Below are positions 50,285 to 64,000 of a stretch of 64,000 nt of DNA, piece after piece. Numbering within the stretch: the stretch's first letter is position 1; every line of letters begins with the position of its first letter. The notes under the pieces are model-generated. The model searched no databases and was not told the origin of the DNA. It worked only from the letters and a program-made list of their open reading frames with translations. Origin of the DNA: Desulfomonilia bacterium (GTDB taxonomy: Bacteria; Desulfobacterota; Desulfomonilia; UBA1062); the NCBI GenBank assembly GCA_963664325.2, contig CAXXDQ010000007.1:416001-480000 (forward strand), in the 5' to 3' direction. The translations under genes were made by a program, and so were the position numbers.

Positions 50285-51835
50285 TTATTCAACCTTTCTG
50301 ATAATCAGCTTCTTCCCGAACACCTTGGAAAAGGCCTCCCTGTGATTCTGCGCGCCCCAGGTCTCGAGATCACAACCCCTGTCGCATCCGAGCTCGAGTA
50401 TAACCGCATTTTTTTCGCCCGTTTTAAACCGGGCATGATTAATCAGGCCGGCGTGGCTCCTGTCAAGGCTTTCCGCAATCCTTAACAAAATCGAGTGGAC
50501 CTTGACGGTATCAACGGACTTTTCATCAAGGCCCGCAGTCTCCGGTCCTTTCCTTCCCGGAAAGCCGCGCCTGTGGAAAAAGACATCGGCGGCCATAATT
50601 AAAATTTCCCTCTGGTTGAACCCCAGCAGGTCCGCATTCCTTATGAAATAGCTGCTGTTGGCATGATGGTTGCTGTATGAAAGGAACGCCCCTATATCAT
50701 GCAGGATGGCAGAGCAGTGAAGCAGTTCCCTCCTGCCGGAGCCCTGCCTGTGAAGCAATATCTCCCTGCCCGTATCAAACATCTCAAGGCAAAGGCGTGC
50801 GACTGTCATGGCGTGCTTTTCATCAAAGCCGCATCTCCTGCCAAGGCTCAATACGCTCCTCATCCTTATTGAGACCTCAGGCGCTTCCTGGCCGTATTCC
50901 CTGTCAAGATAGTCAATGAGCAGTCCATCCCTTAATTCACGGGTGCTTATCCTGAGTTCGGGTATCCCGGTTTCAGACATGATGGTTTCGAGGATTGCCG
51001 CTCCGGCAACTAATATGTCAGCCCTTTTAGGATTCATTCCGGGCACATTCCGTCTTTCCCTGAGAGGCAGAGAACATAGCAGTTTCGATACCTGCTTCAG
51101 GTCTTTCAGCCTGAGCAGCGATTTTCTGTCCTCATCACCCTTATAGATTACTTGTCTTGAGATCTCGGCAAGATTCTGCGCAGTACCGGAACTCCCCAGG
51201 GCTTCTTTCACACCTGATGCCCTGATTGCCTGCACAGGCCTGATGGACGTACTTTTTACATGCTCGCAGATCATGGCATATTGTTTCGGCGGGATAGGCC
51301 CCTCGATGCCATCGGTATATTTCATGGAAAGCCTTATTGCCCCGAGTTTCATGCTGTCCAGAAAGATGTATCCGTTATTGTCACCGACAATGACTTCCGT
51401 ACTTCCGCCGCCTATATCTATGAATAGAGTCCGCTCGATTATCTTATCACCGCGCGAAACGCCCAGGTATATCAGCCTTGCCTCTTCCTTCCCCGAGACC
51501 ACATTCATTTCAATACCGGCCTCGTATTTAAGAAGATCAAGAAATTCTTTCTGGTTTGAAGCATCCCTGGTTGCCGAAGTAGCCACGGCAACAATCTCTG
51601 CGGCACCAAAGGTATGAGCCATGCTGACAAAGTTCCTGCATACGGCGACTGCCCTTTGAATGGCCTCGGGTTTTATCCTGTTATCGTCGAACTGCCCTTC
51701 CCCAAGCCTTATCATCTCTTTCTGGCGGGAGAGTTCGGTATAAGACCTTTCACTTTCAAACCGGGCTATCATCAGGCGCACCGAGTTGGTGCCCATGTCC
51801 ATGAACGCGACTACCTTTGGTTTATCGGGTTTCAT
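50285..51835 (-). CDS. ppx: Ppx/GppA exopolyphosphatase with HD domain
   Basis: DMGTNSVRL, ATSATRDA, EEARLI, DIGGGSTE, LHDIG. Confidence 0.92.
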   Translation of the reverse strand: MKPDKPKVVAFMDMGTNSVRLMIARFESERSYTELSRQKEMIRLGEGQFDDNRIKPEAIQRAVAVCRNFVSMAHTFGAAEIVAVATSATRDASNQKEFLDLLKYEAGIEMNVVSGKEEARLIYLGVSRGDKIIERTLFIDIGGGSTEVIVGDNNGYIFLDSMKLGAIRLSMKYTDGIEGPIPPKQYAMICEHVKSTSIRPVQAIRASGVKEALGSSGTAQNLAEISRQVIYKGDEDRKSLLRLKDLKQVSKLLCSLPLRERRNVPGMNPKRADILVAGAAILETIMSETGIPELRISTRELRDGLLIDYLDREYGQEAPEVSIRMRSVLSLGRRCGFDEKHAMTVARLCLEMFDTGREILLHRQGSGRRELLHCSAILHDIGAFLSYSNHHANSSYFIRNADLLGFNQREILIMAADVFFHRRGFPGRKGPETAGLDEKSVDTVKVHSILLRIAESLDRSHAGLINHARFKTGEKNAVILELGCDRGCDLETWGAQNHREAFSKVFGKKLIIRKVE

Positions 51836-53149
51836 CTGAATATGATTTCCCGGCTGAAAACCTTTTTCATAAGGTCCGACTTTAAAAGGCCGTATTCGAG
51901 TTCGGTTTCAGAAGGCCGCAAAGTCTTGCATATTATCGTAATGTTATCAGGTGATACATCGCATATAAGACTTGAAACGGCATTCGAATGCGATCTGTCC
52001 AGGCCGTCTGCCACCCTTAATATGGCGGAAAGCTTGTCCACCCTTTGCCTGTCGGTTTCCGTCAGTGACGAATAAGGGGCCTGATCCTTCTCCGGCAGCG
52101 CCTTCCTGTGGTACCTTGCGACAAGCGCCGTGACAAGCCGTTCATTTTCCGTAAAAGACGGCAGGCTGCCTTTAAGTATCATTTCCATCGAGAGCTTGTG
52201 ATGCGCCCGGCCTCCCTCTGCAATGCCGATATCATGGAGGAGCGACGCACATTTCAGGATTGTCCTGTCGTGCGATGAAAGGCCGTGAAAGGCCTCAAGT
52301 TCGTCAAAAATCTGCTCGGAAAGCTTCATAACCTGTCTTGCATGCGCCTCCTCATAGCAGCTGGCCACTGCAAGGCTCTCAGCCTGGTTCTCGAGTTCAC
52401 TTCCCCTTGAATCCTCCTGGTCCTTAATCGATGTGTAGTTCCTGGCCTCAAGCAGCATCTTCGAGAATACATCGGGCAGCCCACTGCCGATAACAGCGCC
52501 GGCAGCGGCCCGGACATCATAATCGACCCTGTAATGATGCACCTTGACATCCTTCTTGGAGTTTATCTCAAGGATGGCGAATGAAGCCCTCGTGTCACCG
52601 TCATCAGGAAGACCTGTCGAGCCGGGATTGATAAAAACGGCATTGCCCGCCTTCCTCACAAAAGGCCTGTGTGAATGCCCGCAGATTATTATGTCACAAT
52701 CCGACTTCGAGGCAATCTCGGCAAACCTTTCGGTCGGCGTATCGGGTCCCAGATGCTCCCTGTCAGACTCCGGGCTTGCATGAACCAGAAGTATTTTTCT
52801 CCCTTCAATTTCAAGGACCCTTTTCATTGGAAGGTTTTTTACATATTTCCTGTTCGATGAGGAAAGGGCTTCATATGAAAATTTCAGCATGATGAACTTA
52901 TCCGGGTCTTTTTCATGCTGCCAGGCGGAAGCTTTTTTCGGGAATTTCATAATCCTTGTATCGAAATTGCCGGTTATGCCGAGCACCTTTTTTTTTCTGA
53001 GAATGCTAACGACCTCGTCAGGAAAAGCCCGAACCCCAGCATGTCCCCAAGGTCCCATACACACTCGGCCCGTGTTTTTTTGCCTGATTCAGTACTGTCT
53101 TCAGCGCATGCATGTTAGAGTGTATGTCGCCAATTAGCGCTATTTTCAC
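51832..53149 (-). CDS. YfcE-like metallophosphoesterase fused to HD domain (5' frameshifts in G runs)
   Basis: GTG start at 53149 reads MKIALIGDIHSN; LGD in a shifted frame; GNFD, GHSH, NPGS; HD domain LHDIG. Confidence 0.8.
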
Positions 53150-54175
53150 TTAAACCTGCTCTTCGTTTGAATTTTGTTCAGCTGCATCACCTGAATTCAG
53201 AAAATCCGAGAGTGTCTGCCACACTGGAAGCAATTCTTCCCATACCTTTATAAATTCATCATACCTTTTCTTTCTGAATTCCGCCCTGTCCTTTTCAAGG
53301 CACGCAATCCCGGTTTTCAAACGCGGGATAATGCGTACATTTCCGCTGTATTCAATGGCTCTTCCTGCTTCGTCTTCGAGAAAAACCGGCAGAAAGTGCG
53401 CCCATACATCACAGTCGTGTATATCGCCAAGTATTTCCTGAATTGCCTTTGCCGCCTTGATCGGTTTTCTGAGCCTTGTCCTGAAAAGCGGCTCGAAGCT
53501 TTCCATCGCGTATCTGAGATGCTTTGCGGCAATACGCATCTGATGAAGTTCAACACTGCGAGAAGGCTCTCTGATATACATTTCATAACCGAAAAGTTCC
53601 CCCAGAAGCGCCTTTATTTCCCTTGAAGCAAGCATGAACGCATAACGGCCGGGCTTTGCCGGTTTGTCAAAGGCCATTGTGCCGAGTATGGTCCGGAACA
53701 GTTCCTGCATCTCCGTGAATATCCGGCCGTCCTCCATGCGCGTGACAGCTTTGGTTACAGCCGACTGAAGGCCTTCCCTCCTCTGGGTCAATCTGAGCAG
53801 CAGCCTTCTGATGCCTTCCTTCTGTCTCCTTGTTTCAAGGGAGTCCATAAATTCCCTTATATGGATTATCTGGACATCGGCATCCCGGGCCTCGCCCAGG
53901 GCCCGAGTCAGCGAACGCACCCTTTTTCTGTACATCGAGGCCTTTGCATCAGGCAGACATTCTGCGAAAAGCTTCAGGCGGGTCCTCAATCTCCGGGAGG
54001 CAACCCTCATCCTGTGAAGGAACTCAGCGTCTTCCGCAATCTTTACGCCTTCGGCCTCCCGCATTATGGCCTGGAGCTGTGCCGTTAGCGCCTCTATGCT
54101 GAATTTTACAAACATCCTGTCAGGAGTCGCTGTATCGGCTACTTGTTCCATGAACCCCTGTTCTCCAGCAGCCAC
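53150..54175 (-). CDS. CHAD domain (polyphosphate-binding) protein
   Basis: LHRMRVASRRLR, LGEARDADV, LHQMRIAAKHLRY, LGDIHDCDV. Confidence 0.9.
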   Translation of the reverse strand: MAAGEQGFMEQVADTATPDRMFVKFSIEALTAQLQAIMREAEGVKIAEDAEFLHRMRVASRRLRTRLKLFAECLPDAKASMYRKRVRSLTRALGEARDADVQIIHIREFMDSLETRRQKEGIRRLLLRLTQRREGLQSAVTKAVTRMEDGRIFTEMQELFRTILGTMAFDKPAKPGRYAFMLASREIKALLGELFGYEMYIREPSRSVELHQMRIAAKHLRYAMESFEPLFRTRLRKPIKAAKAIQEILGDIHDCDVWAHFLPVFLEDEAGRAIEYSGNVRIIPRLKTGIACLEKDRAEFRKKRYDEFIKVWEELLPVWQTLSDFLNSGDAAEQNSNEEQV

Positions 54176-56316
54176 TGCTGCGAATCGATCTCATCCTGTC
54201 CCTCGGCATGCACTATCCTGGAATATGTTCCGTCAGGCAGCAATAGCCTTGATTTGACATTATCATCCAGATGAACTTTCAGTATTCTTTCATAAATAGT
54301 CTTTTTGATCTTTTCATAGAGTATCGGGAACAGGACCTCGATCCGTCTGTCAAGATTTCTCGGCATCATGTCCGCGCTTCCCAGGAACATCTCGTCCTTG
54401 CCCCCGTTCCTGAAATAGAAAATCCGTGCATGTTCAAGAAACCGTCCCACTATGGATGTAACCCTGATGTTCTCGCTTACCCCGGGAATACCCGGTCTTA
54501 GGCAGCATATGCCGCGTATCTGGAGGTCGATTTTCACCCCGGCCTGAGATGCCCGGTAAAGCGCCTGGATAATCTTCTTGTCGACGAGAGAGTTCATTTT
54601 GAATGCAATGTAGCCGTCAGCCTTTTTCCGGTGTCTTTCTATTTCGCGATCAATACGCAAAAGAACTTCCTTCCTCATCCGTCCAGGCGCCACAAGCAGG
54701 CTTGTAAAATCGCTCTTCGCGGAATAGCCCGTGAGAGAATTGAACAGGTCGGTTACATCTTCGCCTATGGCAGGATTGCAGGTAAAAAGCCCGATGTCCG
54801 TATAAATGCGGCTGGTGATCGTGTTGTAGTTGCCGGTGCTCATGTGGACATAGCGTACTATTCCATTTTTCTCGCGGCGCACCACGAGGCAGAGCTTTGC
54901 ATGCACCTTCATGCCGATGAGGCCGTAGACCACATGCACACCCTCTTTTTCAAGCGCACGCGCCCAGTGTATGTTGGTTTCCTCATCAAAGCGCGCCTTC
55001 AGTTCAACCAGTGCGGCCACCTGCTTGCCTTCGATTCTCGCATCCATGAGGGCGTCGTAAATCGGCGAATTGACGCCTGTCCTGTAAAGAGTGAGTTTTA
55101 TTGCCAGTACATCAGGATCTTTTGACGCCTGCCTTATAAAATCGACAACCGGCGTAAAGCTCTCATAGGGGTGGTACAGGATGATATCGCGGTTCCTTAT
55201 TTTACTGAAGATATCGCCGCTGCCTGAAAAAACCTTCGGCACGGAAGGTATGTATCCAGTATCCTTAAGGTCCGGCCTGTTGATCTTTGCAAGCTGCATA
55301 AGGTCGGTCGTACCCATCAGGGATTTCGTTACAAAAACCAGATAAGGCTCCACTTTTAAATTTCTCATGAGGATATCTCTGATTCTTGCAGGCATGGTTT
55401 CATTCACTTCAAGCTTAACCGCAATACCGAAATGCCTCAAATCAAGACCTTCCTCGACCGTTGTCAGGAGGTCGGAGGCCTCGTCGTCCTCTATTTCTAT
55501 ATCGGCGTCCCTTGTAATCCTGAACGGATATGAGGCGTCCACCTTCAATCCCGGAAAAAGCGTGTCCAGATTAGCGGCAACAACTTCTTCCAGAGGGACA
55601 AAGCAGTATCTTCCCTGCTTTGCCAGAGGCTCAAACTCTGTCTTGTCGTCACTTTTTTCTGGAATTCCAATGAACCTCGGGAATATATCGGGCATCTTCA
55701 GCCATGCAAACCTGTCGCCTTTCTTCGAGTCGTTTATCATAACGGCCAGATTGAGGCTCAGACTCGAAATATGCGGAAACGGATGCGAGGGGTCAAAGGC
55801 CAGCGGCGTTAAAACAGGGAATATCTCCTTTCTGAAATACTCCCTCAAATAATCTTTATCCTCCTTCTTCAGCGACTGGTAGGAAAGCACGCTGATTCCG
55901 GCCTCTTTCAGTTTCGGCCTGAGGTCCTCCTCCCAGCATTTATCCCTGGTTTCCAGAAGGGGCTGCAGCATCTTCCTGATTTCCTGAAGCTGTTCGCCAG
56001 GGAGCATGCCGTCTATAGAACGCTCCTGGGAACCCGACGCAAGCTGATCCCGCAGGCCTGAAACCCGTATCATGAAAAACTCGTCCAGGTTGCTCCCGAA
56101 TATCGAGAGAAACTTGACCCGCTCCAGAAGCGGCTGGGACTGGTCCAGAGCCTCCTCCAGCACTCTGGAATTGAACTGAAGCCAGCTCAGTTCCCGGTTG
56201 ATGTAAAGCCCGGGATCATTGAGAGAATCCATGCCTGTCTTTGCAGAGACCTTTTCCGGAGCCTTTTTACCTGCTATACGCTTTTTCACATCTTTTGGTT
56301 TCTTTTCTTTCTTCAT
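54139..56316 (-). CDS. ppk1: Polyphosphate kinase 1
   Basis: NRELSWL, NLDEFFM, HPYESF, ELKARFDE, KVHAK, RFLEH, SADMM.RN. Confidence 0.97.
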   Translation of the reverse strand: MKKEKKPKDVKKRIAGKKAPEKVSAKTGMDSLNDPGLYINRELSWLQFNSRVLEEALDQSQPLLERVKFLSIFGSNLDEFFMIRVSGLRDQLASGSQERSIDGMLPGEQLQEIRKMLQPLLETRDKCWEEDLRPKLKEAGISVLSYQSLKKEDKDYLREYFRKEIFPVLTPLAFDPSHPFPHISSLSLNLAVMINDSKKGDRFAWLKMPDIFPRFIGIPEKSDDKTEFEPLAKQGRYCFVPLEEVVAANLDTLFPGLKVDASYPFRITRDADIEIEDDEASDLLTTVEEGLDLRHFGIAVKLEVNETMPARIRDILMRNLKVEPYLVFVTKSLMGTTDLMQLAKINRPDLKDTGYIPSVPKVFSGSGDIFSKIRNRDIILYHPYESFTPVVDFIRQASKDPDVLAIKLTLYRTGVNSPIYDALMDARIEGKQVAALVELKARFDEETNIHWARALEKEGVHVVYGLIGMKVHAKLCLVVRREKNGIVRYVHMSTGNYNTITSRIYTDIGLFTCNPAIGEDVTDLFNSLTGYSAKSDFTSLLVAPGRMRKEVLLRIDREIERHRKKADGYIAFKMNSLVDKKIIQALYRASQAGVKIDLQIRGICCLRPGIPGVSENIRVTSIVGRFLEHARIFYFRNGGKDEMFLGSADMMPRNLDRRIEVLFPILYEKIKKTIYERILKVHLDDNVKSRLLLPDGTYSRIVHAEGQDEIDSQQWLLENRGSWNK

Positions 56317-57830: not shown

Positions 57831-58310
57831 TTATTTATTAAACGCTTCGATAACGGCATCCGGAACCCTGACCGCAACAACTTCACCCCGTGCGCACTCG
57901 ACTCCGCCAGAAGAAAGAATGGTAGTTATTATAACCTTTTTGGGCTTTATCTCTTTTGCGCTTGATCTGAGTTCAAGAGGCACCCCCATCGGCGTCGGGC
58001 TCTTGAAATCGACATGAAGCGCAGCGGTCAGAAACCTTATTTCCGGCTTGCTTCCGATCTCCCTGCCTTCGGCACGCGCTGCATAGGCGGCCGCCGAACC
58101 CGTGCTGTGGCAGTCAATAATCGATGCTATGAGACCGCCGTACACCATTCCCGGGATCGCCATGTATTTCCCGTCAGGAATAAAGGTGCAGACCGTTTCG
58201 TCTCCGTCCCAGAAGCTTTTTATCTGCAAACCTTCGCTGTTCAATCTTCCGCAGCCATAGCAATGGCTGAAGTTGTCCGGATAACAATCCTGAAAGGCCT
58301 TATTGTTCAT
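57831..58310 (-). CDS. PaaI / hotdog-fold thioesterase
   Basis: HCYGCG..N..GL, YGGLIASIIDCH, PTP. Confidence 0.85.
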   Translation of the reverse strand: MNNKAFQDCYPDNFSHCYGCGRLNSEGLQIKSFWDGDETVCTFIPDGKYMAIPGMVYGGLIASIIDCHSTGSAAAYAARAEGREIGSKPEIRFLTAALHVDFKSPTPMGVPLELRSSAKEIKPKKVIITTILSSGGVECARGEVVAVRVPDAVIEAFNK

Positions 58311-58662
58311 GGCAGCCGTGCTCATGGAGTTCACATGCGACTCCCGAATCCGTCAGGTTTCCTGAAAGCCAGGCCAGCATCACTTCTTTTACATCGCCGG
58401 AACAGCCCCTCACAACATCGATCCCGACGCTGTTGAGCACATTGACCGCACCCTGGCCCATAATGCCGGCAAGCATCAGGGTAACTCCCATCTGTTTGAG
58501 CGTACCGGCTATGTTGGACCTGCAGCCGCAGCCCGCCTGGGAACTGACAATTTCCAGCGCAGCGATTGATCTTTTCTCGTCAACCGTAAAAACCGTAAAA
58601 TACTCGCAATGTCCGAAATGTTCATCTATCCTGTTCTGTCTCGATGGTAACGCTATTTTCAT
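58300..58662 (-). CDS. NifB/NifX family Fe-Mo cluster-binding protein
   Basis: MKIALP, HFGHCEYF, GCGC, MGQGA. Confidence 0.85.
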   Translation of the reverse strand: MKIALPSRQNRIDEHFGHCEYFTVFTVDEKRSIAALEIVSSQAGCGCRSNIAGTLKQMGVTLMLAGIMGQGAVNVLNSVGIDVVRGCSGDVKEVMLAWLSGNLTDSGVACELHEHGCHEQ

Positions 58663-58672
58663 TTTTTTCTCC

Positions 58673-59074
58673 TTAAACTTTTCTTATATTTTTTCTGCAG
58701 TAGGGACATCTTCCCGCGTTATTCATCCCCTCGCAGAGAACTGTCGCCCTTTTGCAGTTTTCGCAAGGATTCATGCCGGGCTTGACGATAAAGATATCAC
58801 CCCCGCTTATTCTGAGGGCCTTTCCGTTCACAATAAAATCTGCGATCTTCTGCTGGGCTGATTCGATTATCCTGCCGAATGTCGGACGTGATATGTTCAT
58901 CATAGCCGCTGCCTGTTCCTGGTACATGCCCTCGTAGTGCGCAAGCCTTACGGCCTCGAATTCATCCAGGCTCAGATGAACTTCCCCGCAGGAAGAAGCC
59001 TTCACTCCTTCCGGCTTAAAGCATGTATTCTCCGGCATCAGGCCTATGTTTCTGCAGCACTTGGGTCTGGGCAA
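58673..59074 (-). CDS. DUF134 family HTH protein
   Basis: MPRPKCCR, FKP, DEFEAVRL, QEQAAAMMNISRPTFGRI; C-terminal CxxC...CPYC. Confidence 0.9.
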   Translation of the reverse strand: MPRPKCCRNIGLMPENTCFKPEGVKASSCGEVHLSLDEFEAVRLAHYEGMYQEQAAAMMNISRPTFGRIIESAQQKIADFIVNGKALRISGGDIFIVKPGMNPCENCKRATVLCEGMNNAGRCPYCRKNIRKV

Positions 59075-59198: not shown

Positions 59199-60728
59199 TT
59201 ATTTTTCTGTCTTTAACCTCAATGAACGTTCGAATCCGGGCAGCCGTGACTCATTGACAAAAAGTCTGTACGGCCTTCTGATCTTCCACCCCTTCATAAC
59301 AGGATCATACATGCCTATTTTTCTGCCAGAAAAAATAAGTTTCGGATATTTATTATTCTTCCGTTCAAATACTGCCAGTTCTATCCTTTTAACCTTTGGC
59401 AGCAGTTTTATGAAAATTCCTGAACGCGACAGGCCATGATAAACGCAGTGGAGCAGCCTTGATATAAAACGCATGACAGGCCTGCGCACCTTTACCAGAT
59501 GCATCTCCGCAACACCCAATAAACCTCCATAAATCCTGCGCATCCGGCCATCTCTATGTGATTCGCAAACCCGGCCGATAACATTAATCCTGTCAATTGT
59601 ATATGGGTCGGGATTGGCATTACTATCTCCCTTTGTCCGGATCTTGGAGTCTTTTACTTCAATAATTCTGTGGACTATCGTATCTTCCCTGGTTTCAGTC
59701 TTGTAGCATATTACATCGCCTTTTTTTATCCTTGAGCCGGCATCATAAGGAATAACAGTCATCATTTCAGGTTCGATAAATGTAGGATTCATGCTTACGC
59801 CGCGATAGACGAAATACAAACAGTTTCCATTTTTCCTTTTTTGAACATAATCATTTTCAGACAGCCTGACGTTCACTTCTTCAATCTCTCTCCTTTGAAG
59901 GATAACAGATTTAAGGGTCTTTTCCATCTCCTTCCAGAATTCACCGGTAAGGCTGATATGAAGCTGGAAGGCAGGGACAGATTGGGACAGTACATTCGCT
60001 CTTTTAATAAAGTTTTTAACAAGCCCTTGTTTTTCCCTAGCAGTAAACATATTCGAGCGTGTGACATGTTCGACAGTATCAATGATCATGGCCTTCGCAT
60101 GCGCCTTGTCAACCGGTATTGCAAAGTCATTAGGTGACTGCACCAGGAAAAATATCACATTAAGCTGAATTCCATCCTCAACTTTCCAGCTCCCGCCTGG
60201 CCCCTTCGTATAAAACCTGCTCCATGTAGGCCAGGGATGGGCTCTGAAGCCACCATTGCCATCAGGTATAATTATCGTCGCGTCGTCGCAGTAAGAAATC
60301 CAGGGTCCGGGCAGCCTCATGCTGGCTGTGGATTTGCCGATAGTCCCCGGACCGGCCATAATTGCGCCTGCTCCATCATGCGAACACAATGCACCGTGAA
60401 TGAGCATTCCGCCCTTATTCGTAGCATCGATAACAACAGCCTGGGCAATCCTTTCCACCTGGATATTGAACATCTCTCTGTTTTCGGCCGGATTGAGTAT
60501 GCAAAGGATCGGCTCTTCGTCGTTTTCAGGTATAACGAGCTTTTTTTCACCTCTTTCATGTTCCTTTACACAGACCAGAATTTTTCTGCCCTGTTCTTCT
60601 ACTTTCTCAAGCTGCATGATTTCCGCAAGCTTTTGAACAAACGTTTCCGCTTTTTTATCGGTTGGGATGATTGAATATCCAATTGATTCCGTCAGTTTCA
60701 TTACGGGATTCTTATTGATAGTATTCAT
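59199..60728 (-). CDS. scmC: SynChlorMet ScmC-like HPr-kinase-related protein fused to an S26/S24 peptidase domain
   Basis: IHGAL, GPGTIGKST, CDD, HPWPTWS; then GVSMNPT, VHRI, TKGDSN. Confidence 0.78.
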   Translation of the reverse strand: MNTINKNPVMKLTESIGYSIIPTDKKAETFVQKLAEIMQLEKVEEQGRKILVCVKEHERGEKKLVIPENDEEPILCILNPAENREMFNIQVERIAQAVVIDATNKGGMLIHGALCSHDGAGAIMAGPGTIGKSTASMRLPGPWISYCDDATIIIPDGNGGFRAHPWPTWSRFYTKGPGGSWKVEDGIQLNVIFFLVQSPNDFAIPVDKAHAKAMIIDTVEHVTRSNMFTAREKQGLVKNFIKRANVLSQSVPAFQLHISLTGEFWKEMEKTLKSVILQRREIEEVNVRLSENDYVQKRKNGNCLYFVYRGVSMNPTFIEPEMMTVIPYDAGSRIKKGDVICYKTETREDTIVHRIIEVKDSKIRTKGDSNANPDPYTIDRINVIGRVCESHRDGRMRRIYGGLLGVAEMHLVKVRRPVMRFISRLLHCVYHGLSRSGIFIKLLPKVKRIELAVFERKNNKYPKLIFSGRKIGMYDPVMKGWKIRRPYRLFVNESRLPGFERSLRLKTEK

Positions 60729-60742
60729 GGCGAAGTGATTTT

Positions 60743-61909
60743 CTAATTTAGCTGCTTCTTTTTTCTCGACGCAGCGAACCTTCCTGATTCATTCGCCTCA
60801 AGGCACATGGTATGCGGCCATAGGAGTCTGCCGAAGTTCGAGTAGTTCTGCACAACACAGCCTGTCCTGCATTTGCGCATGAATATGCAGTTGCGGCACA
60901 GTTCCGGATAATTCGCGAAATCCATTAGATCATTTCTGAGTCTCACGACCGCCGGATGGTTGAGCCATATGTTCCTGATCGAATCTTCTCCGAGCTTGCC
61001 GTAAACAAGTTCGGGCATGGTCCTGCCTATTCCGCACAGAGCAATAGCCCCTGAGCCAAGGATGCCGAGTATATGGTCAACCCCGCAATCGCCTGCATTG
61101 GTATTTGAAACAAGCTCTTTAATCGGTCTTAAAGAAAGCGGAATGTTAATTATAACAGGTATGCGGGAAATCTTTTTCAGAGAGCCCCTCACAAAATCAG
61201 ACAGCTCAATTATTTCCTTAAGTGCAAGTGTCTCGTTCCTCTCGTGCATGAGGATGCCTCGGCCGTTGTTTGTCACAGGATTCAACTTTACCGAACCCGC
61301 GCCCTTCGACGCCGCCATCTTGACGAGCTCTTCAACCTCGCCGACATTGCCCCTATGAGGGGACATGATTATCTGCACGTTCTTGTAGCCGGCATCGACA
61401 AGGCACCTTAGACCGTTCAGAGCCGTCTTGTAAGCGCCTTTGACGCCTCTGAACCTGTCATGGGATTCCTCATGTATGCTGTCCAGACTTATTGATATGA
61501 AGCTGATCTTCGTCTCTTCCCTTAGAAACCTCGCCTTTTCTTCATCGAGGAGCGTGCCATTGGTTTCCATATTCAGGCTCAATCCCTCTTCGGAGAGCAT
61601 TCTGGCTATTTCCCTGAACCTCGGATGTATCATCGGTTCGCCACCGGTAAGCTTGGCGTTGGTCAGACCGAGCGGCTTCGCCTCATTCACTGCCTGTCTT
61701 AAAAGCTCTATGTCAATGACCTCGCCGGGAGACGGCTTCCCGTTTACGAAAGAAGGCGTTATCCAGCAGTGCCTGCACTTCAGATTACAGCTGTCAGACA
61801 TGTAGAGGTAAAACGCTCTCAGAACCGGGACGCCTTCAGGCAGATCGGGATTTCTCTTATTGTCACTATCAACCATATCGCTGCTTAAGCAAAGATCGGT
61901 CATTCTCAA
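60743..61909 (-). CDS. scmF: Radical SAM/SPASM protein, ScmF-like
   Basis: CNLKCRHCWI, LTGGEP, ETNG; SPASM-type CRNCIFMRKCRTGC. Confidence 0.82.
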   Translation of the reverse strand: MRMTDLCLSSDMVDSDNKRNPDLPEGVPVLRAFYLYMSDSCNLKCRHCWITPSFVNGKPSPGEVIDIELLRQAVNEAKPLGLTNAKLTGGEPMIHPRFREIARMLSEEGLSLNMETNGTLLDEEKARFLREETKISFISISLDSIHEESHDRFRGVKGAYKTALNGLRCLVDAGYKNVQIIMSPHRGNVGEVEELVKMAASKGAGSVKLNPVTNNGRGILMHERNETLALKEIIELSDFVRGSLKKISRIPVIINIPLSLRPIKELVSNTNAGDCGVDHILGILGSGAIALCGIGRTMPELVYGKLGEDSIRNIWLNHPAVVRLRNDLMDFANYPELCRNCIFMRKCRTGCVVQNYSNFGRLLWPHTMCLEANESGRFAASRKKKQLN

Positions 61910-63012
61910 ACCTCTTGAAGATATTTTTTATAGCAGACAAGCGGATCAATGGAGTTCAACATACCGGTCTTTGACATGACTGTTCCGGGACATCCGCCGG
62001 TGCAGAATCCTGCATACAGACAGCCCCGGCATTCTTCGGCCTCGGTTATTGGAATTTTGCGTCGCTCCCTCACAATATTTATGTTCGGGTGAGCCTGCCA
62101 GACCTCTTTGAGCGAAACCTCTCCCATTTTTCCCATGACCAGGGTGGGCAGCATGTTGCACGGCACATATGTTCCGTCGTGCAGAACCGCCATCTTGTTG
62201 AACACTCCCCCACAGGAGCAGAATGTTCCTCTGCCTTTCATCGAGGTTTCACCTCTTTCAAGCCTCTCACTGATTTCCCTCATCATCCTGGCCCTTGTCA
62301 GCGGCCCGGCCTGTGCGCTTATACGACCGCCGTATCTTTCATCGATCGAGACAAGCGTAACCATTGCCTTCTTTCTTTCTTCTATACTCAGTATGATATC
62401 CTGGCCGTTGCAGCGGGCGCTTCCCATATAGTCGGCCTCGTTCGTGCTGAATCCGGACAGACCCACGTCATCTATGAGCAGCTCGGCAATGTTTTCAAGG
62501 TCATTTACATTATGGCGGTTTATGGTAACCCTCACGGTGACGGGAAAACCATGTTTTTTCAGTAGTCTGAGTGCGCCTATCGCCTTTTCGAAACTCCGGG
62601 GAGGCCTGCTCTTGTCATGGATGTCCGGTCTTGAACCGTCGACTGAAATCTGGATGGAATCGAGCCTCTGCCTGCGTTTTCCTTTAAAGAATTCGCTTAT
62701 GGTTTTCTCGTCAATGAGCGTGCCGTTGGAAAGTATTTTGTATCTCATCTTGTTGTCTATGACACTGTCGATGATTTCGAAAAGGTCTTTTCTTATGAAC
62801 ACTTCGCCCCCGCTCAGGCAGACCTTCTGAACCCCCAGACCACCCGCTTCACTGAAAAATGCAAGCCAGTCCCCGGTAGGAAGATCATCCGCCTTTTCCA
62901 TGCTCTCTGCATAAAAGCAGTAGCGGCATTTAAGGGTGCATTTTCCTGTAAGTCCTATGTCGAGTTCAAGTGGGGCGGATGATATTCCGGGATAACCTTC
63001 AGGAGATTTCAT
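61906..63012 (-). CDS. scmE: Radical SAM/SPASM protein, ScmE-like
   Basis: CTLKCRYC, SGGE, SNGTL; SCGG, PC, CRGCLYAGFCTGGC. Confidence 0.85.
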   Translation of the reverse strand: MKSPEGYPGISSAPLELDIGLTGKCTLKCRYCFYAESMEKADDLPTGDWLAFFSEAGGLGVQKVCLSGGEVFIRKDLFEIIDSVIDNKMRYKILSNGTLIDEKTISEFFKGKRRQRLDSIQISVDGSRPDIHDKSRPPRSFEKAIGALRLLKKHGFPVTVRVTINRHNVNDLENIAELLIDDVGLSGFSTNEADYMGSARCNGQDIILSIEERKKAMVTLVSIDERYGGRISAQAGPLTRARMMREISERLERGETSMKGRGTFCSCGGVFNKMAVLHDGTYVPCNMLPTLVMGKMGEVSLKEVWQAHPNINIVRERRKIPITEAEECRGCLYAGFCTGGCPGTVMSKTGMLNSIDPLVCYKKYLQEV

Positions 63013-63277
63013 TTATAAAATTTACTCCCAGCATTTTTATGAAGTTTTCCGCATCATTTTTTGCGCTTTCAAAGTCTATACCGCTGAAGCTCTCGACAAG
63101 GAAGGCGGCTATTTCATCCAGAGTCCTCGGCTTTTCTATGAAAACCCATATTAGCCCGCCCGTTACATTCATTATCGTGCTTAAATCCATGTCAGGGTTA
63201 TATAGAACCGCGCCTTCATGGTCTTCATCTCTGAACGAGACATCCGGGTTCGACTGATATCTTATTCCATTCGCCAT
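62999..63277 (-). CDS. scmD: PqqD / RiPP recognition element (ScmD-like)
   Basis: NPDVSFRDE..GAVLYNPD....MNVTG.LIW; 92 aa; directly upstream of the radical SAM genes. Confidence 0.85.
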   Translation of the reverse strand: MANGIRYQSNPDVSFRDEDHEGAVLYNPDMDLSTIMNVTGGLIWVFIEKPRTLDEIAAFLVESFSGIDFESAKNDAENFIKMLGVNFINEIS

Positions 63278-63368
63278 TTTTCACCTTGATTTATATAATT
63301 TTGCTCGATTGATGTTTTCTTTAAAACGTTTACCCGGTGCAATAAATTCAGTTTCAACATAAAACTAG

Positions 63369-63398
63369 AAGCCGGAGACATTCAAAAATCTCCGGCTT
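63369..63398 (-). terminator. Hairpin between the precursor gene and the maturase genes
   Basis: AAGCCGGAGA-N10-TCTCCGGCTT, followed by CTAGTTTT on the minus strand. Confidence 0.6.
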
Positions 63399-63416
63399 AT
63401 GGAATAAACTGGCTTA

Positions 63417-63677
63417 TTAAAAACCATTACCTTCAGAAACACAAGCAGTACTTGCTGAGTTTCCTGAAGAAAAACAGTCATGCATATCGGTTCCTGGTGA
63501 ATTGCCATCACCAGTACATGACAGGGTTGCAAAATTACCAGTCATGCAGGGGGAGTCTGCATTTGATCCCGGTGTAGTACAGTCTCCGATAGAATTCGAG
63601 GTTCCATCAAGCTTTATCGCTTTCGGCGCTTCGTATACGTGTTTAGAAACGGTACCGGATTTGTTTTCTTTAGCCAT
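63417..63677 (-). CDS. Putative RiPP precursor peptide with a five-Cys repeat core
   Basis: AGGAG RBS; leader YEAPKAIKL (YxxPxL-like); core has five C-x2-3-G-[NS] repeats. Confidence 0.75.
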   Translation of the reverse strand: MAKENKSGTVSKHVYEAPKAIKLDGTSNSIGDCTTPGSNADSPCMTGNFATLSCTGDGNSPGTDMHDCFSSGNSASTACVSEGNGF

Positions 63678-63775
63678 CACCATCTCCTAATATATTATCA
63701 TCCGTCATGAGCAAGATAATATTTAACACTTAATCTAAAGACGGGAAAAGTCAACCGTCATATGTTACATTGTCG

Positions 63776-64000
63776 TCAATATATTACCCTGCAGCCGGAG
63801 AAACCGTTCGAGTTGAGCCTGTCCGCAAGTTCAAAGACATCACAGCCGATGTCCCCGGGTACACCCGTAAAAGCCTCTTTTATAAGCTCTACTATCCGGC
63901 CAACGTCTTTAGCGCCGTCGCTGCATTCCTTCTTAACTTGCCCGTGGAGTTGACGGGCACAAAATTTCCGGTATCCATATTGACCCGCACGGCCCAGCCG
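63776..64000 (-). CDS. Second PqqD-family protein (5' end outside the window; apparent frameshift near 63935)
   Basis: Frame-joined GWAVRVNMDTGNFVPVNSTG...DGAKDVGRIVELIKEAFTGVP..IGCDVFELADRLNSNGF. Confidence 0.6.
   Translation of the reverse strand, partial: RLGRAGQYGYRKFCARQLHGQVKKECSDGAKDVGRIVELIKEAFTGVPGDIGCDVFELADRLNSNGFSGCRVIY

Follow-up and report, generated by a model that had tools for sequence, protein, structure and literature searches.

The closest described relative of the locus reported here is the SynChlorMet (Scm) cassette, which otherwise exists as five curated database models from comparative genomics (TIGR04252, TIGR04249, TIGR04248, TIGR04250 and TIGR04251) and for which no publication was found in open-access PMC and bioRxiv. 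It comprises two PqqE-like radical S-adenosylmethionine (rSAM)/SPASM enzymes, a PqqD-like protein, ScmC and a short Cys-containing precursor, ScmA. Passages of published reports describe further comparable systems: the ranthipeptide precursor PapA of the freyrasin system carries six C-X3-D/E motifs that PapB makes into in-line thioether rings (PMC9413430), CrpC of Methanococcus voltae forms a ranthionine on a 17-residue unit that is repeated 10 times in CrpA (PMC13692751), and the sactipeptides thuricin CD and ruminococcin C use two rSAM enzymes for their Cys-containing precursors (PMC12093266, PMC10470295). We analyzed a 64,000-nucleotide stretch from a Desulfomonilia bacterium (contig CAXXDQ010000007.1, positions 416,001 to 480,000 of the forward strand; hereafter the window, meaning this whole stretch), in which a short minus-strand open reading frame (ORF) at 63417-63677 stands among Scm-type genes. 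As judged by sequence comparison, this ORF encodes a divergent ScmA-type precursor of a peptide that is made by the ribosome and modified after translation (RiPP), one of a large family found beside such cassettes. That it supplies the substrate peptide of the cassette is very probable in our assessment; the full mechanism put forward below, including thioether rings, we hold with moderate confidence.

The ORF extends on the minus strand over 63417-63683 (88 aa), with its stop codon at 63417-63419 in the window translation. A Shine-Dalgarno-like AGGAG, read from the sequence at 63684-63688 on the same strand, directly adjoins the ATG at 63683, whereas 6 nt separate it from a second ATG at 63677. 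Because of this 6-nt spacing, and because the orthologues in the two closest loci (L001 and L002) begin with MATEKK and MAKEEK (pattern MA(T/K)E), translation likely starts at 63677 and gives a peptide of 86 aa (63417-63677), the same start as in an earlier sequence-only reading of this DNA. The leader stretch HVYEAPKAIKL and all five core segments quoted in that reading are indeed present in the minus-strand translation. The leader, residues 1-32 (63582-63677), contains Y15-E-A-P18-K-A-I-K-L23 and G31, and the core, residues 33-86 (63420-63581), consists of five units C-x2-3-G-[NS]-x-(A). The pattern x2-3-G-[NS] follows 5/5 Cys, and the residue behind the unit Gly is Asn in four of the five units. 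When the 55-residue core was shuffled, five units appeared once in 100,000 trials (mean 0.36 units per shuffle), and when the whole peptide was shuffled they never appeared in 100,000 (mean 0.29). No unit is present in 699 of the 720 window ORFs that are 25 aa or longer, 19 have one, one has two and the precursor alone has five; it is also the sole match to the family profile described below at E ≤ 10. The rarity of five units under shuffling, the unique profile match and the good ribosome-binding site all argue against a chance open frame or a dead remnant, in which case the cassette would act on some other substrate. The structure predicted for the peptide alone had no secondary structure (pLDDT, the predicted score of the local distance difference test, 58.5), and such an unfolded prediction fits precursor status, as expected.

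The family was delimited through ScmE, for which 1695 homologues were obtained at E ≤ 1e-30; close ones, with 86% and 84% identity, carry the source name 'SynChlorMet cassette radical SAM/SPASM protein ScmE'. Our locus set is the best 80 of 190 confirmed stretches, fetched with an alignment of 24 of the 120 listed ScmE homologues. Across these 80 loci, ScmE identity to the window enzyme ranges from 47% to 86%, and the taxa are Methanoregula, Methanospirillum, Anaerolineae and other Chloroflexota, Desulfobacterota-like metagenome-assembled genomes, Aminicenantes and others. A phmmer search with the window peptide against the 10,591 ORFs (at least 25 aa) of the 80 loci returned nine matches, all with the same leader and Cys repeats, and the L001 and L002 orthologues occupy the same place in the cassette (E 5e-16 and 9e-11). 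An iterated profile found 68 ScmA-like ORFs in 55 of the 80 loci (E ≤ 0.001). For 42 loci the context is full, in that a ScmF gene is present and the sequence reaches 2 kb or more upstream of ScmE and 2.5 kb or more downstream, and 37 of them have a ScmA-like ORF at the same threshold; a relaxed search gained one further full-context locus, L068. The 25 loci without a profile match are mostly short contigs. A precursor-type peptide beside homologous ScmD/E/F cassettes, as proposed in the sequence-only reading, is thus what these counts reveal, rather than the lack of conservation that the reading had named as its own counter-evidence. At the level of sequence, this conservation already contradicts the chance-ORF explanation, to which we assign next to no probability.

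As for position, 34 of the 68 family ORFs lie between ScmF and ScmC (29 of them on the cassette strand), which is the commonest family site. Another 10 are placed upstream of ScmD, the arrangement of the window, where the precursor gene stands between two PqqD-like genes. Some cassettes have two or three ScmA-like copies, some of them on the opposite strand (L021 4199-4926 and L025 9345-10507; also L011, L012, L016, L020, L029, L030, L033, L059 and L074). A profile search of 1.84 billion representative proteins extended the family to 1959 members at E ≤ 0.001, 27 of them at E ≤ 1e-10. Among the 150 top representatives listed, 148 were new; the leader pattern is present in 145 of these 148, x2-3-G follows 775 of their 796 Cys, and 530 of the Cys-Cys spacings equal 10 or 11. 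The number of units in one chain ranges from 3 to more than 30, with P0181 (265 aa), P0286 (264 aa) and P0298 (514 aa) having 20, 21 and 33 Cys, respectively. By eye, the N-terminus of P0298 appears to be a PqqD-like domain fused to the repeat region, and P0180 (266 aa) has a long C-terminal extension without repeats.

The signature of the family is a Y-x-x-P-x4-L leader and a Gly before the first Cys, followed by 10-11-residue units C-x2-3-G-[S/N/G]-x-A. In 30 aligned members, the invariant positions are Y15, P18, C33, G37, C44, G47 and C54 (window numbering), with G31 almost invariant, and an alignment of 142 representatives agrees with this conservation pattern. The Tyr and Pro of the YxxP leader motif that had been picked out from the window alone are invariant in both alignments. 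Across 199 members the Cys residues are spaced by 10-11 residues, the distance from Tyr to the first Cys is 18-19 residues in 147 (18 in the window peptide), and the tail behind the last Cys has 6-9 residues in 159, with Gly kept and Ala not. Expressed as percentages of units, those with a spacing of 10 read C-x-x-G(96%)-[S 37, G 18, N 16]-x-A(67%)-x-x-x and those with a spacing of 11 read C-x-x-x-G(70%)-[S 30, N 28]-x-A(57%)-x-x-x. In the locus set the Gly is present for 265 of 274 Cys and G-[NS] for only 110 of 274. Hence the Cys and Gly part of the C-x2-3-G-[NS] repeat claimed for the window holds across the family, whereas its [NS] position is not conserved, and the window motif is a local version of a broader C-x2-3-G-x-x-A unit with a period of 10-11.

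The genes around the precursor match this picture. In co-directional order on the minus strand (59199-64000) they are ScmD' (cut by the window end), the precursor, ScmD, ScmE, ScmF and a ScmC-peptidase, and the same co-directional set, in which ScmC and a short precursor accompany two rSAM/SPASM enzymes and a PqqD-like protein, recurs in the fetched loci. The SynChlorMet models are the best NCBIfam matches of four window proteins. ScmE (61906-63012, minus strand) matches TIGR04250 over its full length with 391.7 bits (E 2.7e-117; runner-up family 124.7), has the Radical_SAM and SPASM Pfam domains, and contains CX3CX2C and CX2CX5CX3C in its translation. ScmF (60743-61909, minus strand) matches TIGR04251 over its full length with 313.6 bits (E 1.9e-93; runner-up family 108.9); its translation also has CX3CX2C and the SPASM signature CX2CX5CX3C, and Pfam gives Radical_SAM and not SPASM. 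ScmD (62999-63277, minus strand) is a PqqD-family protein (PF05402, 34.9 bits with a cut-off of 23.4) of the discrete, peptide-binding type related to RiPP recognition elements (RREs). The open-ended ORF at 63776-64000 (minus strand), whose 5' end lies beyond the window, aligns with L001 6047-6334 (70% DNA identity) and L002 6041-6328 (67%) and is similar to them in C-terminal protein sequence. Its L001 counterpart matches PF05402 PqqD with 56.3 bits, and the window fragment alone matches weakly (E 0.12). Because this ORF is, by these alignments, the 3' part of a second PqqD-like gene, ScmD', the cassette extends past the window end. PqqD-like genes accompany the cassette in 74 of the 80 loci, and two of them are found in 22. 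The ScmC-peptidase fusion (59199-60728) is treated further below.

Several results weigh against the identification of the ORF as a precursor of a Scm cassette. The NCBIfam precursor model TIGR04252 ('SynChlorMet cassette protein ScmA'; 49 positions, cut-off 35 bits) gives no match to the peptides of the window, L001, L002 and L003 even at E ≤ 10, and a word-index protein search found no match to the peptide sequence in a large predicted-protein collection; these two negatives are also what a chance frame would have in its favor. Five of the 42 full-context loci have no ScmA-like ORF at E ≤ 0.001, and a sigma-70-like promoter was not found on the minus strand upstream of the precursor ORF. Among the curated NCBIfam cut-offs, that for ScmC alone is passed and four of five are missed: ScmE misses its cut-off of 400 narrowly, ScmF stays below its own cut-off of 400, and the best match of ScmD, TIGR04248, reaches 21.7 bits where 100 are required. 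Because only ScmC passes, we use the label Scm-type for this cassette, which by its sequences is not a certified equivalog set. The ScmA model is nevertheless linked to the family. It matches 3 of 68 peptides (the window peptide and 67 of the 68 locus ORFs) at 20.0-22.1 bits, all below the cut-off, and 22 of the 142 representatives at E ≤ 0.01, the best at 3.2e-7; in neither set was a score seen that exceeds the cut-off. An indirect path leads from the window peptide to L063 (phmmer 6.2e-6) and from L063 to TIGR04252 (20.0 bits). The neighboring ScmE is present as P0001 in the predicted-protein collection where the peptide gave no match, and the precursor ORF seems to have been overlooked by gene callers in the source genome. 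Pfam has no family for the window peptide, and the 142 relatives gave one stray BmKX match; the 30-sequence alignment used as a word-index query returned 31 matches, all unnamed or 'hypothetical protein'; and the matching clusters in the ESM Atlas are all unnamed and without Pfam families. Judged by its sequence relatives, the window peptide is thus a divergent ScmA-type member of a kind known from databases only.

The proposed maturation begins with the leader, whose Y15-x-x-P18-x4-L23 element would be held by one or both of the small PqqD-like proteins, ScmD and ScmD'. We infer this step from the invariant Tyr and Pro, the discrete PqqD-like proteins and the fact that ScmE and ScmF have no N-terminal extension. 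Such capture would set the register of the core, the first Cys lying 18 residues past the Tyr. In lasso peptides a leader motif Y-x-x-P-x-L goes together with a PqqD-like RRE, and the window leader resembles it in having Tyr and Pro three apart and then a hydrophobic residue, as well as in the discrete PqqD-like proteins. The Leu, however, lies five residues past the Pro and not two, and NCBIfam and Pfam scans of the cassette proteins gave neither an asparagine-synthetase-like cyclase nor a transglutaminase-like B2 leader protease. A complex predicted for ScmD with peptide residues 1-34 had a score of 0.54, compared with 0.02 for the best of three controls, with at least 95% contact agreement between runs and a partner pLDDT of 58. 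Of 157 solved complexes, 116 attain the mark applied to such predictions, as do 2 of 215 mismatched pairs, and scores of 0.60 or less include only 18 of the 157 solved complexes together with both passing mismatches. The predicted complex therefore lends weak support to leader binding, and the pass may reflect only a likeness to solved leader-RRE complexes.

Both rSAM/SPASM enzymes would then process the five 10-11-residue units C-x2-3-G-[N/S]-x-A, joining each Cys sulfur to a carbon of a nearby residue in a thioether of the sactionine type (to an alpha carbon) or the ranthionine type (to a beta or gamma carbon) and creating up to five small rings. ScmE and ScmF could share out the units or could install two different modifications. 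An rSAM/SPASM maturase gene beside a Cys-containing precursor, one of the features of sactipeptide and ranthipeptide systems, is what we find here; two SPASM enzymes are present in all cassettes, and in a strictly periodic unit no residue other than the Cys is invariant. Because of this periodic invariant Cys, the two SPASM enzymes and the tandem-Cys thioether precedents, one Cys-derived ring per unit is supported, and by analogy thioether rings are the most likely chemistry of the core. The short tail behind the last Cys suggests that this residue finds what it requires either upstream of it or, on its downstream side, no farther than about 7 residues away.

The same enzymes and units leave room for another outcome, in which the peptide is a Scm precursor, the rSAM enzymes modify residues other than Cys (by epimerization, C-C bonds or chemistry on Gly/Ala), and the Cys serve as metal ligands or disulfides of a metal-binding peptide. 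We regard this as unlikely, though it accounts for observations that sit less well with thioether rings. The units have no conserved Asp, Glu or Gln acceptor; the conserved partners of the Cys are Gly and Ala, neither of them a known ranthionine acceptor. The nearest solved relatives of ScmE and ScmF are PqqE, SkfB, SuiB-type enzymes, anSME and CteB, and the two enzymes are as near to PqqE (which makes a C-C bond), WgkB and AhbD as to thioether-forming enzymes; the closest solved or curated relatives include PqqE, AhbD and WgkB besides SkfB. In the part of the TvgB report consulted (PMC9062424), a repeat motif stands beside a SPASM enzyme as well, yet the chemistry is that of cyclopropylglycine. 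On the other side are the Cys as the sole invariant core residue with a fixed period, and the characterized tandem-Cys SPASM systems that we met, all of which form thioethers according to the passages available (PMC9413430; PMC13692751).

Among these systems, freyrasin shares with the window the tandem short Cys motifs beside an rSAM/SPASM enzyme, as its report describes in part (PMC9413430). The window units differ in having no conserved Asp/Glu acceptor and in having Gly at +3/+4, the window cassette has two maturases where the PapB system has one, and the PapB model NF047865 gives ScmE 70.2 bits against a cut-off of 340, so that the locus does not classify as a freyrasin system. The CrpA/CrpC system (TIGR04463) likewise has a repeated Cys motif downstream of a leader-like N-terminus and a SPASM enzyme, but in the passages of its report CrpA is large, C-X-X-Q/D forms part of its 17-residue unit, and a single enzyme carries a fused RRE (PMC13692751). 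The enzymes also belong to different families, TIGR04463 being outside the best 25 families listed for ScmE or ScmF. The two-maturase sactipeptides of the thuricin CD and ruminococcin C type are hairpin peptides with the Cys at one end and the acceptors at the other, whereas the window peptide has one Cys in each tandem unit. Compared with SynChlorMet itself, the window differs in the missed cut-offs, in the upstream site of its precursor gene and in the fusion of its ScmC to a signal peptidase, which is seen in 21 of the 51 loci with a peptidase or a ScmC part.

The fused protein (59199-60728, minus strand, 509 aa) has a P-loop domain at about residues 1-285, a Sec11/SipW-type peptidase domain at about 300-400 and a C-terminal domain. 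In its ScmC part, residues 81-272 pass TIGR04249 with 153.7 bits (cut-off 125) and take in no more of the profile than positions 99-292, and its peptidase part matches the archaeal-type signal peptidase I model TIGR02228 with 60.6 bits (cut-off 51.85) over residues 309-389. In 21 fused homologues, G131, K132, T134, M313, P315, R354, G367, D368 and D374 do not vary, and S312 and H353 are almost invariant; we take the conserved region with Ser312, His353, Asp368 and Asp374 to be the Ser/His/Asp boxes of Sec11/SipW-type peptidases. No accessory of the cassette is more constant than the peptidase, which occurs in 48 of the 51 loci that have any ScmC part (fused in 21, separate in 7 and by itself in 20). 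In the 20 peptidase-only loci its gene usually follows directly behind the precursor gene. The P-loop part alone occurs in only three loci, at least two of which (L013 and L028) end inside that gene. In our scheme the peptidase domain would cut the leader near Gly31, just ahead of the first Cys; it would be unusual for a RiPP leader to be removed by a type I signal peptidase that looks cytoplasmic. The P-loop domain would be an accessory, and its absence from 20 loci makes it probably dispensable for the core chemistry.

A more active part for the P-loop domain is conceivable in a lanthionine-like route, in which it would phosphorylate the Ser/Thr behind the unit Gly, elimination and Cys addition would follow, and the rSAM enzymes would do something else. 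Some HPr-kinase-like enzymes phosphorylate lasso precursors, the P-loop of ScmC is an invariant GK(S/T)T, the structure model of ScmC (pLDDT 82.3) found PEPCK and one HPr-kinase match in a Foldseek fold search, and the post-Gly residue is Ser in 30-37% of family units. We nevertheless judge this route very improbable. The post-Gly residue is Asn in most of the window units; the P-loop domain is absent from those 20 of the 51 loci that have the peptidase only; the NCBIfam and Pfam scans of the cassette proteins gave neither a lyase nor a cyclase domain; and an HprK match by sequence is lacking at E ≤ 0.01. Compared with solved structures, the ScmC sequence gave weak SEC11 matches only (best E 0.0038). 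Because the TM-scores of the fold matches are low (0.14-0.33), the label kinase-like for the ScmC P-loop domain is kept tentative.

Downstream of the precursor, a terminator-like hairpin with a T-rich tail lies at 63359-63398 on the minus strand, 18 nt past the stop codon. In the hairpin itself (63369-63398), a stem of 11 bp, 6 of them G-C pairs, encloses a loop of 8 nt and is followed by the tail CTAGTTTTAT; its RNA fold has an energy of -27.3 kcal/mol (z = -5.27; none of 200 shuffles equally stable). It sits inside a spacer of about 139 nt between precursor and ScmD, whereas L001 and L002 have 5 nt between the stop codon and the ScmD start. In a crude scan, terminator-like sites were found behind 1 of the 68 family ORFs and behind 4 of 135 control ScmE and ScmF gene ends. 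These counts and its absence from L001 and L002 rule out the hairpin as a family-wide feature. Accordingly, the strong 3' hairpin of the sequence-only reading does exist, but its interpretation as a device for excess precursor transcript fails for the family and could apply at most locally. In this lineage only, the hairpin may tune the ratio of precursor to enzyme transcripts, by lowering read-through into the enzyme genes.

The wider neighborhood bears on the metal-binding alternative. Directly upstream of the cassette in L001 (3327-5962) and L002, ahead of ScmD', is a metal-uptake operon for ZnuA, an ATP-binding cassette (ABC) ATPase and an ABC-3 permease; its window equivalent would fall beyond 64000. 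Downstream of the window cassette, at 57831-59074 on the minus strand, are genes for a DUF134 helix-turn-helix protein, a NifX/NifB-like protein with a 'dinitrogenase iron-molybdenum cofactor' domain and a 4HBT thioesterase, and the DUF134 and NifX/NifB-like genes are syntenic in L001 and L002 only. The metal-uptake operon would suit Cys residues that bind metal, but since the ZnuABC, DUF134 and NifX-like neighbors, like a sigma-54 activator gene, occur in only L001 and L002 among the 80 loci, they are ruled out as parts of the system and stand outside it. An ABC protein, mostly of about 600 aa, is found near the cassette in 22 loci besides L001 and L002 (for example L032 11132-12967, L051 11192-13003 and L077 10655-12475), at a distance of at most 800 bases in 14 of the 22 and of 1.7-5.4 kb in the other 8. 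This cassette-linked ABC protein is possibly the exporter of the product; none was seen adjoining the cassette in the window. Farther downstream, at 51832-56316 on the minus strand, the window has three long ORFs (54139-56316, 725 aa; 53150-54175, 341 aa; and 51832-53064, 410 aa), which by eye only are polyphosphate kinase-, CHAD-domain- and metallophosphoesterase/HD-type-like.

Overall, the curated precursor model captures only a minority of the peptides that sit in Scm cassettes. The window is a clean and compact example, in which the five units are accompanied by both PqqD-like genes, the two enzymes and the peptidase, and together with the family signature it makes the system directly testable. 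It is possible, although we hold it only tentatively, that these peptides form a large RiPP class of at least 1959 sequence clusters, in which two rSAM/SPASM enzymes install a novel cross-link in each unit (for example Cys-Gly/Ala) to give a polycyclic 'ladder', and a cytoplasmic Sec11/SipW-type peptidase removes the leader. Should the cross-link prove to be new, the system would add a RiPP class with a wide distribution among anaerobic bacteria and methanogens; should it turn out to be an ordinary thioether, freyrasin's 'tandem ring' design would be extended to a much larger family.

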